Part shown: one piece after another, positions 18,579-36,007 of the stretch | How the letters are laid out: each line of letters begins with the position of its first letter | Numbering within the stretch: the first letter of the stretch is position 1 | The notes under the pieces: model-generated | Told to the model about the DNA's origin: nothing | The model's input: the letters and a program-made list of their open reading frames with translations, nothing else | The model's database searches: none | Origin: Thermoanaerobaculia bacterium | GTDB lineage: Bacteria; Acidobacteriota; Thermoanaerobaculia; Multivoradales; JAHEKO01 | DNA: 46,819 nucleotides | Direction of reading: 5' to 3' | NCBI GenBank assembly: GCA_033720955.1 | Contig: JAWWBN010000002.1 | Coordinates: forward strand, 1 to 46,819 | Position numbers and translations under genes: made by a program

Positions 18579-19910
18579 TCACCAGCGCGCGACCGCCTGG
18601 TCCACGAACCAGCGGAGCCGGGCCAGGACCTCGTCGCCGTCCACCTCGCCGAGGCGGAACCGCCGGGCCAGGCTGAAGGCGGTGACCTCGAGCTGGGAGC
18701 CGTTGGGGAACGGCAGGCAGGTGCCGTCCCGGATCTCCGGCCACGACTTCTTGCGGGCGGTGAAGGGGGCCGGCACCCGCAGCCGGTCGTCGGGTCGAAC
18801 GAAGTCGGGATCCTCGGGCCAGATGGCCCCGCCCCACTTCATCGTCTGACCGCGCACCAGGCTCAGCAACGGATTCTCGAAGCGCTCGTGGAACTTGTAG
18901 TGCCCGAAATCGACGAGCTGCGCCCGCGCCGGGTCGTCGTCCGACTGGCGGGCGATCTGGATGTTGACGCCGTCGAACTGCCGTGGCCCTCCGCTCGTCC
19001 GACCCACCCGGCGCAGCTCCTCGATCTGCTCGTCCCGCAGCTTCTTCTTGACCGTTCCCGCGTAGCGCACCTCGAGCTTGCCGTCGCTCTCCTTCAGGGC
19101 GAGCGTGGTGCCGGGCGTCGAGGAGGTGATGCCGTAGTTGCGGAGAAGCAGCTCGATCTCCAGGTAGAGAGCCTGCAGCTCCGACCCGAGAGTCGGCAGC
19201 TCGATCGCCTTGACCGCCCGCCGGTGGGCGCGCCGCACCTGTATCGCCGCCGGTGAAGACTGGCTCGGGTCGGGCCGCCATTTCATGTCGAATCCGGTGT
19301 CGAGGACGGCGTAGGTCGGCACCGAGGCCAGGTCGGGCAGGGCGCGGTGAAAGATCTCGTCGATCACCCACTGCGCGACCATGTCCAGGAACGCGCACCC
19401 CAGGTAGTGGAGCCCGTTGGTGTGGGCGCCGGCGAGCGACGGCCGCGCGTTGGGCCCGACGCCCGTTCCCTTCAGGTCGAGCAGCCCGCCGGCGCCACGG
19501 CCTCCGGCGCCCGGCACCGATCGAACGAGGGCCCGCCCGTAGCGGGTAGGGCGATAGGCGAGCGCGGGCCCGCCCGTCTCGATCGGAGTGTTGACCCTGG
19601 TCTGGCCCGCCTGGCTGCGGGAGATCACCGCCGCGTGTCGGAGCAGCCAGATGTCGAGGAGCTTGCGGATCTCCCCGCGGCGGGCCGCGATGTCGAGCCG
19701 CCGCAGGCGGGGGTGGCCTTCGAGGAGCCTCCGGTCTCGAAGGTGTGGAAAATCGTGCTGAAGGAGACCGTAGTCCGCGAAGACCACTCTCGCTCCCTCG
19801 AGCCGCAACACTTTCTCTTTTCGAAGCCCTCCATCTTCCAGATGGTCGGGAGCTCGCAGCAGCGGTCCGGCGGAGACCCGCTGCGGGATGGTCGAGTCGA
19901 CGCCTCGCAT
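18579..19910 (-). CDS. Hypothetical protein with SelO/protein-kinase-like motif string
   Basis: The ATG at 19910 is the first start after the AT-rich intergenic stretch. Motifs LLDLKGTGVGPNARP..HTNGLHYLGCAFLDMVAQWVIDEIF, FDGVNIQI and LVDFGHYKF follow the order LKGAG / HGVMN / DYG seen in SelO-type pseudokinases. No SD is visible and the resemblance is weak. Confidence 0.7.
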   Translation of the reverse strand: MRGVDSTIPQRVSAGPLLRAPDHLEDGGLRKEKVLRLEGARVVFADYGLLQHDFPHLRDRRLLEGHPRLRRLDIAARRGEIRKLLDIWLLRHAAVISRSQAGQTRVNTPIETGGPALAYRPTRYGRALVRSVPGAGGRGAGGLLDLKGTGVGPNARPSLAGAHTNGLHYLGCAFLDMVAQWVIDEIFHRALPDLASVPTYAVLDTGFDMKWRPDPSQSSPAAIQVRRAHRRAVKAIELPTLGSELQALYLEIELLLRNYGITSSTPGTTLALKESDGKLEVRYAGTVKKKLRDEQIEELRRVGRTSGGPRQFDGVNIQIARQSDDDPARAQLVDFGHYKFHERFENPLLSLVRGQTMKWGGAIWPEDPDFVRPDDRLRVPAPFTARKKSWPEIRDGTCLPFPNGSQLEVTAFSLARRFRLGEVDGDEVLARLRWFVDQAVARW

Positions 19911-20009
19911 TTTGTTTGACGAATGTTTCGTACTGCTGATATCATGAAACGCAACAATCCTGTAAAAGGCTCCTGAGCTCAGGAGCAAAACGAAGAGAGA
20001 GGCGGTTCC
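19911..20009. promoter_or_regulatory. AT-rich divergent control region: sigma70-like promoter for the + gene plus an 18-bp perfect palindrome
   Basis: TTGACG (19916-19921), an 18-nt spacer, then TATCAT (19940-19945). The perfect palindrome GCTCCTGAGCTCAGGAGC (19969-19986) is flanked by A-runs. RBS agagagagg precedes the ATG at 20010. The palindrome tgatatca overlaps the -10 element. Confidence 0.45.
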
Positions 20010-20471
20010 ATGCGCAACCGAGAAGTAGAGCCCTCTTCGACCTCCCCGGAGGTCCACCTGCCCACCGTGCTGGAGCTCGCGCTCCAGGATGCCCATCAGG
20101 AGGCGGCGTCGCGCGCCCGAGTCGCGGCGCGGGCCCTCGGCCTGTTCGCCGCCGGAGGCAGTGCCGAGGAGAGCGCCGAGGAGAGCGCCGAGACAGGGGC
20201 CGAGGAGAGTGCGGAGGAGAGCGCCGAGAAGGGCGCGGAGGAGAGCGCCGAGGAGAGTGCCGAGGCGAGCGCGGAGAAGGGCGCCGAGGAGAGCGCCGAG
20301 TACAGCGCCGAGAAGGGCGCGGAGGAGAGCGCGGAGGAGAGCGCGGAGTACAGCGCCGAGTACAGCGCCGAGAAAGGCGCCGAGGAGGGCGCGGAGGAGA
20401 GCGCCGAGAAGGGCGCCGAGGAGGGTGCCGAGGAGAGCGCGGAGTACAGCGCCGAGAAGAGCGCCGAATAG
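20010..20471 (+). CDS. Acidic tandem-tetrapeptide repeat protein, (A-E-x-S/G) x25.5, after a 51-aa unique N-terminus ending AAGGS
   Basis: ATG with an RBS and a candidate promoter. In this frame all repeat codons are GCS GAG NNS RGY, which is the genome-typical GC3 pattern. The +1 frame gives (PRRA)n using AGG/AGA Arg codons, which is atypical here. Confidence 0.7.
   Translation: MRNREVEPSSTSPEVHLPTVLELALQDAHQEAASRARVAARALGLFAAGGSAEESAEESAETGAEESAEESAEKGAEESAEESAEASAEKGAEESAEYSAEKGAEESAEESAEYSAEYSAEKGAEEGAEESAEKGAEEGAEESAEYSAEKSAE
20163..20468 (+). repeat. 12-bp tandem repeat, 25.5 copies (GCS GAG NNN RGY)
   Basis: Counted directly. The units are AEES x11, AEKG x5, AEYS x4, AEEG x2, and one each of AETG, AEAS and AEKS, plus a terminal AE. 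Synonymous variation (gcc/gcg, agc/agt, ggc/ggg/ggt) is scattered among the copies. Confidence 0.95.
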
Positions 20472-20492
20472 CGTGGATCCCGACCAGGTGCG

Positions 20493-34518: not shown

Positions 34519-35288
34519 GGCCCGGATCGCACGGCGGTGAAGAGCGCTTGCACCTCGTCCGGATGGGGGTAGATGGGGTCCTCGATCTCGATCTGACGGA
34601 TCTCGTCGAAGCCGAGAAAGTCCAGGACCGTGGTCACCGAGCGCGGAGCGGGCACCAGTTGGCACATCTCCGAGGTCCGCCAGCGGCCCGTGGCCATGGC
34701 GATGGTGCCCTCCTCGAAAGGCGGCAGCCGGGTCATGAGCCAGAGCGGATGGTCCCTCCACTCCGGGCGGTCGGTGACCCGGGTCTCGAGGACCAGCAGA
34801 CCGCGAGTCACGCCGGTCAGGCTGCGCAGGGCCAGGATCGGGTTCTCCAGGTGGTAGAGGACGTCGAAGCAGAAGACCACGTCGAAGGTCCCCTCGCGGT
34901 CGGGCGACAGCTCCTCGATGCGCATCTTCCGGAAGCTGACCTGGTCGAGGTCCAGCGCGCTCTGGAGGAACCGCGCCTGCTCCAGGTAGCGGTCCACGAT
35001 GTCGATGCCCACCACCTCGGCGGCGCCGGAGCGAGCCGCCTCCACGGAGAAGCCGCCGGCGTTGCAGGCCACGTCGAGGACGCGCAGATTCTCGAAGCCG
35101 CCGAAGCGCTCCAGCACCAGCGGCCAGACGAGCGACCGCAGGTCGGCGACCCGGACCCGCTCGAGGGGCCGCTGGGCGGTCTCGGGGTCCCAGGTCCGCA
35201 GGCCGTAGGGCAGCTCCACGTTGTGAAAGAAGGGGCCCAGCCGGGCGATGCCGTCGCGGATCTCCTCCGCCGTCATCTTGCTGCTCAT
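34515..35288 (-). CDS. Class I SAM-dependent methyltransferase (DUF1698/CmoB-like layout)
   Basis: ATG at 35288 follows gggag. FHNVELPYGLRTW is followed by VLDVACNAGGFSVEAARSGAAEVVGIDI and FDVVFCFDVLYHLENP. The stop overlaps the convergent O-MT stop within CTAG. Confidence 0.8.
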   Translation of the reverse strand: MSSKMTAEEIRDGIARLGPFFHNVELPYGLRTWDPETAQRPLERVRVADLRSLVWPLVLERFGGFENLRVLDVACNAGGFSVEAARSGAAEVVGIDIVDRYLEQARFLQSALDLDQVSFRKMRIEELSPDREGTFDVVFCFDVLYHLENPILALRSLTGVTRGLLVLETRVTDRPEWRDHPLWLMTRLPPFEEGTIAMATGRWRTSEMCQLVPAPRSVTTVLDFLGFDEIRQIEIEDPIYPHPDEVQALFTAVRSGP

Positions 35289-35377
35289 GGTGACCGCTCC
35301 CGCCGGCTCCGAGCTGAACCTGGGAAAGACCGTAGTATATTGACCCGCCAGAAACACCGAGACAGCTTCGCGACGTC

Positions 35378-36007
35378 ATGCCTTTCGTCGACATCTTCGA
35401 CTCGGGCTTTCGTACCGGAAGGAAGGTCTGCCTTCTCGCGCCCGGCCCCAACGGGCGGGACCACTACGGCGAGATCCCGGCGGATCACCAGGTGATCGCC
35501 ATCAGCAAGGCGGTCCTGATTCCCGAGGTCGAGGCGCAGATCTGGGTCAACCCGAGAACCGAGCTGGAGTGGTTCGAGGAGGCCAACCGCTCGTTCCCCG
35601 GGGTCCGCATCTTCCACGTCGACGCAGCGAGGGAGATCGAGGCGGAGCTTCCGGGGTGCGAGAGCTGCTACTCCTTCGAGCTCCAGATGGACGACGACGT
35701 CTGTCTTCAGCCGCACGAGATGCGGCCGATCGTTCCGGGCGTGATCCGGGGCAACGGCTCCATCAGCGGCGCCGCGATCCAGATCGCCTACCACTGCGGG
35801 GCTCGCGAGATGCTGCTCTGCGGCATCGACATGTCGGGGGACGCCTACTTCGACGGCACCTTCACCCTGGACCAGCACCACGGCACGACGTGGTGGTTCA
35901 CGCCGCGGCTCAACATGCTGATCCGCTGGATGATCGAGCGGGGCGGCTGCCAGGTCCGCACCCTGAGCCCCACCCGGCTCGACGTGGCCCGCTACGCCGG
36001 CGAGTAG
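35378..36007 (+). CDS. DUF115 / MptE-like (Maf-type) domain protein
   Basis: VCLLAPGPNG and GSISGAAIQIAYHCGAREMLLCGIDMSG resemble the MptE-like fold signature (ts..aA..lA..lGa..I.L.G.D). No SD is visible, so both function and start are tentative. Confidence 0.6.
   Translation: MPFVDIFDSGFRTGRKVCLLAPGPNGRDHYGEIPADHQVIAISKAVLIPEVEAQIWVNPRTELEWFEEANRSFPGVRIFHVDAAREIEAELPGCESCYSFELQMDDDVCLQPHEMRPIVPGVIRGNGSISGAAIQIAYHCGAREMLLCGIDMSGDAYFDGTFTLDQHHGTTWWFTPRLNMLIRWMIERGGCQVRTLSPTRLDVARYAGE

Follow-up and report, generated by a model that had tools for sequence, protein, structure and literature searches.

A conserved, uncharacterised island of tailoring enzymes around a GTP cyclohydrolase II-WD40 pair in a Thermoanaerobaculia bacterium

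To our knowledge, very few pathways divert the product of GTP cyclohydrolase II (GCHII) beyond flavins, and the toxoflavin and pseudoiodinine pathways are the main examples. In both, a GCHII is paired with a WD40 protein, as ToxB/ToxC and PsdD/PsdE, respectively (PMC9911603, PMC12154649), and ToxC has been proposed to be the oxidase that forms the N-N bond (PMC12154649). The psd operon encodes a methyltransferase, a VOC protein, a sulfatase-modifying-factor protein (PsdC), the GCHII (PsdD), the WD40 protein (PsdE), a further methyltransferase and RibD, and the pseudoiodinine route passes via the toxoflavin intermediate 1,6-didesmethyltoxoflavin (1,6-DDMT) (PMC9911603; PMC12308417). Here we describe a gene island at positions 18579-36007 of a 46,819-nucleotide stretch of DNA from a Thermoanaerobaculia bacterium (contig JAWWBN010000002.1), referred to at its full length as the window. 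The island is a real, conserved and uncharacterised biosynthetic gene cluster that contains such a GCHII-WD40 pair, and we consider it rather probable that it forms one conserved cluster for a small molecule that is built from GTP and then heavily tailored.

Because the GC content of the window is high (about 70-76%), genes were called by third-position GC and checked with Pfam. An earlier, sequence-only reading of this DNA had described a dense island of modifying enzymes made of 17 consecutive genes; the island stands, with domains essentially as that reading had listed them (Pfam, NCBIfam and PDB searches), and the count becomes 16 open reading frames (ORFs):

g01, 18579..19910, minus strand: 443-aa protein with no Pfam family and a distant protein-kinase-like fold; left edge of the island
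g02, 20010..20471, plus strand: repeat ORF with 25 copies of a 12-bp tandem unit
g03, 20493..20915, minus strand: single-domain VOC/glyoxalase-fold protein (Pfam Glyoxalase, 46 bits)
g04, 20912..22141, minus strand: divergent Fe(II)/2-oxoglutarate (2OG) oxygenase of a rare family, 409 aa
g05, 22335..23117, plus strand: predicted PhyH-family Fe(II)/2OG hydroxylase (Pfam PhyH, 105 bits)
g06, 23133..25139, minus strand: cobalamin-binding (class B) radical S-adenosylmethionine (SAM) enzyme
g07, 25262..26353, minus strand: SnoaL-like domain fused to a CmcI-type methyltransferase
g08, 26389..27138, minus strand: NodH-like sulfotransferase of the 3'-phosphoadenosine 5'-phosphosulfate (PAPS) type
g09, 27132..28181, minus strand: medium-chain dehydrogenase/reductase (MDR; zinc-ADH-like) oxidoreductase (Pfam ADH_zinc_N)
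g10, 28328..30187, plus strand: WD40 beta-propeller of the GCHII-linked (ToxC/PsdE-like) family (Pfam WD40)
g11, 30209..31384, plus strand: GCHII with a degenerate N-terminal domain like 3,4-dihydroxy-2-butanone 4-phosphate (DHBP) synthase
g12, 31425..32486, plus strand: PhyH-family oxygenase, extended at the N-terminus by about 95 aa (Pfam PhyH, 96 bits)
g13, 32471..33406, minus strand: extended short-chain dehydrogenase/reductase (SDR; NAD-dependent epimerase/dehydratase; Pfam Epimerase, 115 bits)
g14, 33493..34518, plus strand: O-methyltransferase (Methyltransf_2 plus dimerisation domain; Pfam, 161 bits)
g15, 34515..35288, minus strand: class I SAM methyltransferase (Pfam Methyltransf_31/25/11)
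g16, 35378..36007, plus strand: 209-aa protein with a sub-threshold MptE-like/DUF115 match only; right edge of the island

At the centre of the island lie g10 and g11. The GCHII g11 matches Pfam GTP_cyclohydro2 with 223 bits, against 44 bits for DHBP_synthase, and NCBIfam RibA with 245 bits. Its zinc motif (HSECLTGD...CDCG) is intact, and the site of the DHBP synthase motif reads SEGGAI in place of RENEGD, which we take to be the catalytic motif of that enzyme. These motifs show g11 as a predicted intact GCHII with a dead riboflavin-type partner domain. A tblastn search of the WD40 protein g10 against plasmids returned 113 records, and the top four all lay beside a GCHII gene, three of them together with a SUMF1/FGE gene. 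They were found on a Niveispirillum plasmid (54% identity to g10, beside GCHII), on a Halobacillus plasmid (33%; GCHII-WD40-SUMF1/EgtB with a VOC gene), in Bacillus arachidis (29%; FGE-GCHII-WD40-VOC, with RibD nearby) and, as the fourth, on a Streptomyces plasmid, where a ToxD-like FGE/SUMF1 gene is again the neighbour. In addition, Paenibacillus has WD40 proteins with 50-52% identity to g10, and these adjoin a gene with an FGE-sulfatase domain. In a neighbour-joining tree these FGE-partnered proteins stand at the base of a clade whose members are partnered with sulfotransferases, and three plasmid-borne tox-like WD40 proteins form the sister group of that clade. Because the adjacency of GCHII and WD40 matches ToxB/ToxC (PsdD/PsdE), the g10-g11 pair appears to be a recognisable scaffold-forming core, and g10 would belong to the ToxC/PsdE family. 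The sequence-only reading had seen no recognisable scaffold-forming enzyme, a statement that this pair leaves only partly right. Of the two scaffolds it had offered instead, a GTP-derived one made via the GCHII gains from the evidence on g10 and g11, and a ribosomal one, the A-E-x-S repeat protein, loses by being lineage-specific. It had also matched the gene combination to no known pathway, and here we agree: an NCBIfam scan of all island proteins gave zero equivalog-level matches, and hence no named pathway, and a literature search on GCHII with WD40, radical SAM, sulfotransferase or PhyH found no paper.

The same gene set, in shuffled order, occurs on contigs from at least five lineages, with radical SAM homologues at 52-81% identity. 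We compared the extended loci L002/L010 (Thermoanaerobaculia MAG097, a metagenome-assembled genome, MAG), L005, L090-L092 and L093. The closest relative is a MAG of the Thermoanaerobaculia (Acidobacteriota), and L002/L010 holds the whole island in nearly the order of the window. L005 is rearranged (O-methyltransferase, CmcI methyltransferase, WD40, GCHII, MDR, radical SAM, PhyH, sulfotransferase, g04), and L090-L092 and L093 show yet other arrangements. The genes g04, g05, g06, g07 and g08 are common to all four extended loci (L002, L005, L090 and L093), and every sufficiently long contig bearing g04 also carries g08, MDR, GCHII or WD40 genes. That the set is kept despite shuffling indicates one functional unit. 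Rather than the loss of co-localisation that the sequence-only reading had set against its own proposal, we found a set that persists in five lineages, though rearranged. Furthermore, a mini-cluster at L004:7642-13458 consists of RibD followed by a PhyH gene (50% identical to g12) and a B12 radical SAM gene (64% identical to g06), with two ABC ATPase genes before it and a ferritin-like gene and a HAD hydrolase gene after it; no WD40 or GCHII gene was found there within 10 kb. The position of the radical SAM and g12-type PhyH genes directly after RibD ties these tailoring enzymes to pyrimidine intermediates. In one of the compared loci the WD40 gene appears broken: L002:5004-6885 (NCBI MAG097) is split into ORFs of 508 and 109 aa, and in the near-identical Logan contig (L003:5005-6885) the gene is intact with 626 aa, so the split is likely an assembly frameshift.

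To place the pair in a wider family, we scanned one genome per species with a four-sequence WD40 alignment as query (a seven-sequence alignment including tox-like proteins was too divergent for the genome scan). The scan returned 133 relatives of g10 in species-representative genomes. The uncharacterised GCHII-WD40-sulfotransferase cassette thereby extends to at least 133 species of Acidobacteriota, Planctomycetota, Gemmatimonadota, Actinomycetota, Pseudomonadota, Myxococcota and others, in PKS-NRPS, glycan-type and tailoring settings. The best 80 of the 133, at 49-78% identity, are spread over many phyla, with Sphingomonas, Caulobacter, Rhizobium, Pseudoalteromonas, Tahibacter and Paenibacillus among the cultured carriers. 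Within 10 kb of these best 80 WD40 genes, a g08-type sulfotransferase was present at 71 loci, mostly directly adjacent and on the same strand. GCHII was present at 58 of the 80, RibD or RibD_C at 57, and a protein that we call c3 at 58, and a ToxD-like FGE enzyme was found at two loci, both in Paenibacillus. In the clade of g10, these neighbourhoods show a predicted NodH-like sulfotransferase standing in for the ToxD-type iron enzyme. The g09-type MDR, which is also found in L002, L005 and L090, occurs at 8 of the 80 loci, mostly within the subclade of the window. The partner c3 (about 410-490 aa; for example in L066 and L006) and a second common cassette partner, c8 (about 560 aa; L066:11877-13553), have no Pfam match, and c3 has no relative among PDB sequences. 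Profile-profile comparison of g01 and g04 with c3 and c8 found no relationship.

The sulfotransferase g08 itself has a weak Pfam match but a clear one to NodH in the PDB (9vki, E 5e-21 over residues 8-228). In an alignment of 76 members of its family, conservation of both PAPS motifs (5'-phosphosulfate-binding R-x-G-S-N and 3'-phosphate-binding R-x-N...S) reaches at least 90%, in keeping with the PAPS-type assignment made earlier. The family comprises 112 representative clusters at E <= 1e-30. In L012:9980-13825 and L015:9980-13843, which belong to Holophagales and Thermoanaerobaculaceae MAGs and lie nearest to the WD40 subclade of the window, an in-frame fusion joins GCHII and the g08-type sulfotransferase in one ORF of 649-655 aa. 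Since g08 is the constant partner of WD40 and in some loci is fused to GCHII, it appears to be a core component rather than a tailoring enzyme, and the sulfotransferase and the MDR are better read as parts of the core cassette than as tailoring enzymes. In these two loci the cassette directly follows a polyketide synthase-nonribosomal peptide synthetase (PKS-NRPS), and the WD40 gene overlaps the end of the megasynthase (KS, AT, KR, DH, ACP, C and A domains). This arrangement in the closest subclade points to secondary metabolism. Just upstream of the island, at 16146-17807 on the minus strand, lies an arylsulfotransferase-like beta-propeller gene, which matches (E 2.7e-14) an NHL-repeat family profile seen in 10 of the 80 WD40-sulfotransferase loci; this gene may be part of the system.

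Around the core, Pfam reproduced the earlier annotations of the MDR, SDR, VOC, WD40 and GCHII proteins, of the two PhyH oxygenases (22335-23117 and 31425-32486) and of the methyltransferases at 25262-26353, 33493-34518 and 34515-35288, which are three in number where three or four had been counted. The third oxygenase proposed at 20912-22141, g04, scores 19 bits in Pfam, below threshold, but its HxD...H triad (H264-x-D266 and H328) is invariant. Its AlphaFold model (pLDDT 78.7) resembles 2OG oxygenases such as BcmC/E/G and HSL1, with the double-stranded beta-helix fold of that class, and Foldseek gives a 2OG oxygenase for each of its top 50 matches (probability 1.0, TM to target 0.34-0.63). 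A word-indexed search of a collection of 5.8 billion proteins found just five clusters of the g04 family, three of them on contigs that also bear the radical SAM subclade, and a metagenome scan with the g04 alignment added a single short contig. The other oxygenase next to it, g05, matches 6zyk in the PDB (2.5e-41). An NCBIfam match to "chlorinating enzyme" had raised the idea of a halogenase, which we ruled out because the motif is H-Q-D and not H-x-A/G (WHQDG, as against WHQAD in SyrB2); by this motif g05 is a predicted hydroxylase. For g12, the best PDB matches are SnoK/SnoN, and in L004 it is the counterpart of g12 that sits with RibD and the radical SAM enzyme. The N-terminus of g12 (31425-31710) gives a sub-threshold match to the Nif11-like leader peptide family (E 0.007), and its homologues in L004 and L090 (346 and 361 aa) probably carry the same extension.

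The radical SAM enzyme at 23133-25139, g06, was recovered as a B12-binding protein with Pfam domains PF02310 (B12-binding, 36 bits) and PF04055 (Radical_SAM, 72 bits) and a CxxxCxxC core, CPFDCDFC, at residues 178-185. By this domain and core, g06 is a class B radical SAM enzyme and a putative methylase. Together with its homologues at 50-81% identity it forms a small subclade inside the large DUF4070 family; against the PDB it scores at most 48 bits, and its NCBIfam matches all lie far under their cut-offs. The methyltransferase g07 matches Pfam RMNT_CmcI (198 bits) and SnoaL_2, and its PDB match is CmcI. The VOC protein g03 is 28% identical (E 8e-6) to the VOC protein beside GCHII-WD40-FGE in Bacillus arachidis and has homologues in L002 and L093. 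Among the related loci, g13 has homologues solely in L002/L010, g14 in L002, L005 and L090, and g15 in L002/L010 and L090. The last gene, g16, is among the best conserved of the set (76-79% identity in L090 and L010, with inverted orientation in L010 relative to the window) and had no match among PDB sequences. Its earlier label, DUF115/MptE-like, survives as a sub-threshold match only (19.6 bits, cut-off 34.6). This match, together with the B12 radical SAM enzyme, had suggested a pterin or methanopterin pathway, an idea that we set aside: the match is sub-threshold, and pterins are made via GCH I/MptA-type enzymes and not via GCHII.

A pathway can be proposed from these assignments. The GCHII g11 would open GTP to a diaminopyrimidinone ribosyl phosphate, whose ribosyl or ribityl part would be processed by a housekeeping RibD or by the MDR g09. 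The WD40 protein g10 and the sulfotransferase g08 would then convert the pyrimidine into a pathway-specific heterocycle, with the sulfate either activating a leaving group or remaining as a permanent ester. This heterocycle would be C-methylated by the B12 radical SAM enzyme g06, hydroxylated by the three Fe(II)/2OG oxygenases, and O- and N-methylated by g07, g14 and g15. By analogy with CmcI and CmcJ, g07 and a neighbouring oxygenase may act as a hydroxylate-then-methylate pair, and the VOC protein g03 may reshape the ring, as PsdB does, or protect the producer. More tentatively, and with less confidence than we place in a single GTP-based cluster, we suggest that GCHII, the ToxC-like WD40 protein and the NodH-like sulfotransferase could form a building-block cassette that turns GTP into a sulfated or sulfate-activated N-heterocycle independently of ToxD. 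Different lineages might plug this product into PKS-NRPS assembly, into glycan loci or, as in the window, into tailoring by radical SAM enzymes, oxygenases and methyltransferases, in which case the product of the window would be a new class of natural product and not an azapteridine analogue.

The ribosomal alternative centres on g02. At 20163-20467, Tandem Repeats Finder detects the 25 copies of its 12-bp unit, which encode [G/S]-A-E-[E/K/Y/...] tetrapeptides, and in L002 an array at the same syntenic position encodes GAER/GAEK in an ORF without a leader. Variation among the copies is largely synonymous (Ala GCC/GCG; Gly GGT/GGG/GGA/GGC; Arg CGA/CGC/AGG), a pattern indicating that g02 is probably translated. 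A peptide with g02 as precursor, modified by the radical SAM enzyme, the oxygenases and the methyltransferases, would agree with this translation and with the shared position of the repeat ORF in L002. The tailoring of ribosomally synthesised and post-translationally modified peptides (RiPPs) is known to involve B12 radical SAM methyltransferases as well as 2OG oxygenases, and g06 has weak NCBIfam matches to RiPP radical SAM families (ApyD and rSAM_ocin_1). We nevertheless regard such a product as very improbable. L005, L090 and L093 retain the enzymes but have no such array, and its confinement to the window and L002 makes it a poor scaffold candidate; the repeat is not conserved either (SAEE/SAEK/SAEY as against GAER/GAEK). 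Between 18579 and 36007, Pfam and NCBIfam detected no RiPP recognition element, no peptidase or other protease and no ABC or MFS transporter, and in L004 the radical SAM enzyme is paired with RibD.

Several observations weigh against a free, GTP-derived heterocycle. The link of g10 to ToxC/PsdE is drawn from gene neighbourhoods in unstudied genomes, the substrates of the tailoring enzymes are all ones that we infer, and both a transporter and a regulator are missing from the island. No window protein has an FGE-sulfatase (ToxD/SUMF1-like) Pfam match, tblastn of two ToxD-like proteins against the whole 46.8-kb window gave nothing, and RibD or RibD_C was found nowhere in it by Pfam or tblastn. 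With both missing, toxoflavin chemistry is not simply transferable to the island, although a housekeeping RibD encoded in another part of the genome may fill this gap. The common partners c3 and c8 are also missing from the window, where hidden Markov models of c3, c6 and c8 find nothing. Finally, most of the 80 loci place the cassette among glycan-type genes (GT4, GT8, Wzz, Wzy, GINT1_N), capsule-type genes and an ATP-grasp/GNAT protein, and the usual product of the family may be a glycoconjugate. It is from this setting that a different reading takes its strength, namely that the cassette makes a GTP-derived sulfated group for a glycan, a cell-surface polymer or a cofactor, with the window as an elaborated form. 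NodH, the closest solved relative of g08, is called a lipopolysaccharide sulfotransferase by its depositors, a homologue of g01 sits among capsule and glycosyltransferase genes in L095, and the island has sugar-type enzymes of its own (the epimerase-family SDR, a protein like CmcI/rhamnosyl O-methyltransferases, and the DUF115-like protein). Because neither the island nor its closest homologous islands contain a glycosyltransferase, flippase or polymerase, and because the WD40 proteins nearest to g10 are linked to PKS-NRPS genes, we consider this unlikely. Even less probable, in our view, is that two or more unrelated units merely adjoin, a GCHII-WD40-sulfotransferase-MDR cassette and a separate set of radical SAM enzyme, oxygenases and methyltransferases with another substrate. 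The radical SAM and PhyH genes do occur in L004 away from WD40 and GCHII, 79 of the 80 WD40 loci lack the radical SAM set, and the island is composed of short convergent and divergent units. However, g04 co-occurs with g08, MDR, GCHII or WD40 on all contigs long enough, the different intermixing of the genes in each lineage would be unexpected for two independent neighbours, and L004 still ties the radical SAM enzyme to RibD, the step after GCHII. An ordinary cluster of the toxoflavin, fervenulin or pseudoiodinine type, making a known 7-azapteridine or a close analogue, is very improbable. The GCHII, WD40, VOC and several methyltransferase genes mirror psd/tox gene types (PMC9911603), but the lack of the ToxD/PsdC-type enzyme and of RibD, the presence of at least nine further conserved enzymes with no tox/psd counterpart and the position of g10 in a separate, sulfotransferase-partnered clade all speak against it. 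A single cluster for a tailored, GTP-built small molecule remains the reading that we favour.

The layout of the island agrees with the earlier description in its details. The ATGA overlap at 20912-20915 (the g03/g04 junction) and the ATGGTGA overlap at 27132-27138, by which g09 is translationally coupled to g08, are both present. As had been stated, domain scans with Pfam and NCBIfam found no PKS, NRPS, terpene cyclase, glycosyltransferase, regulator or transporter in 18579-36007. GC content is slightly lower in the island (0.66-0.70) than in its flanks (0.72-0.76), where Gcw_chp, DUF3187, PD40 and DUF2330 genes are found, as suits a Gram-negative organism. The WD40 gene g10 probably starts at 28328, and g01 most likely starts at 19910 rather than at 20096, which keeps it clear of the repeat ORF. 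A homologue of g01 with 60% identity takes the same position in L002, and over 100 homologues annotated as hypothetical were found; its AlphaFold model (pLDDT 92.4) gives weak Foldseek matches to SelO/YdiU and RIO kinases (TM 0.24-0.31). Another homologue, at 39% identity, is part of an operon in L094 (Sorangium sp. So ce327, CP150330.1 1487031-1500362), together with a condensation domain, a GT2 glycosyltransferase, an adenylation domain, a carrier protein, an SDR, a GCHII, a thymidylate-kinase-like protein and a protein like orotidine 5'-monophosphate decarboxylase. This is a further uncharacterised GCHII-containing cluster, in a culturable myxobacterium. PADLOC defence models matched the island through generic WD40 and radical SAM similarity only, and an Rfam scan of the whole window found no riboswitch, including the flavin mononucleotide (FMN) riboswitch, and no RNA gene. 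A tRNA-Ser(CGA) called by ARAGORN at 34684-34772 (plus strand) is most likely a false positive, as it lies on the opposite strand inside the methyltransferase gene g15 and has no Rfam tRNA match.

One island protein has an exact match on a 61.8-kb ENA metagenome scaffold, and the ENA scaffold L001 carries the same genes as the window. Relative to L001, the window has a 1-nt deletion at 40356 that breaks the DUF2330 gene (39802-41159) into two reading frames and a 3-nt deletion within an MscS-like gene at 37008. The island itself differs by four substitutions, of which g08 R153L, g09 E312A and g10 V150A are non-synonymous. These differences are probably assembly or strain variation. In the window (36095-37090) as in L010 (L010:18455-19234), the island's last gene is followed by one for an MscS-type channel, with proteins only about 27% identical; this may reflect either a common role in export or coincidence. 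Near the start of the window, tandem repeats of 81 and 159-162 bp occupy 1397-2318 within an ORF at 36-3134 (plus strand; 1032 aa, no Pfam match), and their consensus would encode a cysteine-rich motif of the CDDG-FCNG type.

The island is valuable above all for the large and unstudied family behind it, in which GCHII, WD40 and sulfotransferase form the cassette. ToxC-like WD40 proteins turn out to be widespread, and for the majority the partner is a sulfotransferase and not ToxD. Culturable carriers of simple cassettes, including Niveispirillum cyanobacteriorum TH16, Caulobacter sp. BP25, Sphingomonas sp. ERG5, Pseudoalteromonas holothuriae, Tahibacter soli and Rhizobium oryziradicis N19, offer a testable system for the role of ToxC-type propellers. 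The metabolites, derived from GTP and possibly sulfated, are likely to form a new class from phyla that have received little study, the island suggests a new type of substrate for a B12 radical SAM enzyme, and g04 defines a very rare family of 2OG oxygenases.

Judged by its gene content, the island is neither a riboflavin operon nor a standard toxoflavin or pseudoiodinine cluster. With the riboflavin pathway (ribD-ribE-ribBA-ribH) it shares the RibBA-like two-domain layout of g11 with its intact GCHII, and the sister loci have RibD or RibD_C; unlike a riboflavin operon, the window lacks RibD, RibE, RibH and an FMN riboswitch, and the DHBP synthase domain is without RENEGD. As in the class B radical SAM methyltransferases CysS, Fom3, GenK and TsrM, g06 has an N-terminal B12-binding domain and the CxxxCxxC motif and lies among tailoring genes, although it resembles none of the solved or named members more than distantly. 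We know of no GTP-derived heterocycle or ribityl chain described as a substrate of this class. The gene pair CmcI/CmcJ of cephamycin biosynthesis resembles the island in that a gene for a CmcI-family methyltransferase lies beside Fe(II)/2OG oxygenase genes; it differs in that g07 has an extra SnoaL-like domain, the oxygenases are of the PhyH type and of a novel family, and the substrate is unrelated. The closest likeness is to the toxoflavin (toxABCDE) and pseudoiodinine (psdABCDEFG) clusters, which start from GTP and share with the window the adjoining GCHII and WD40 genes, a VOC gene and several SAM methyltransferase genes. The VOC protein of the window has a single domain in 140 aa, whereas PsdB has two. 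ToxD/PsdC, the iron enzyme of the FGE-sulfatase fold, and RibD (ToxE/PsdG) have no counterpart in the window, where the partners of the WD40 protein are a NodH-like sulfotransferase and an MDR. To these the window adds the B12 radical SAM enzyme, three 2OG oxygenases, a CmcI-type methyltransferase, an SDR and two unknown proteins.

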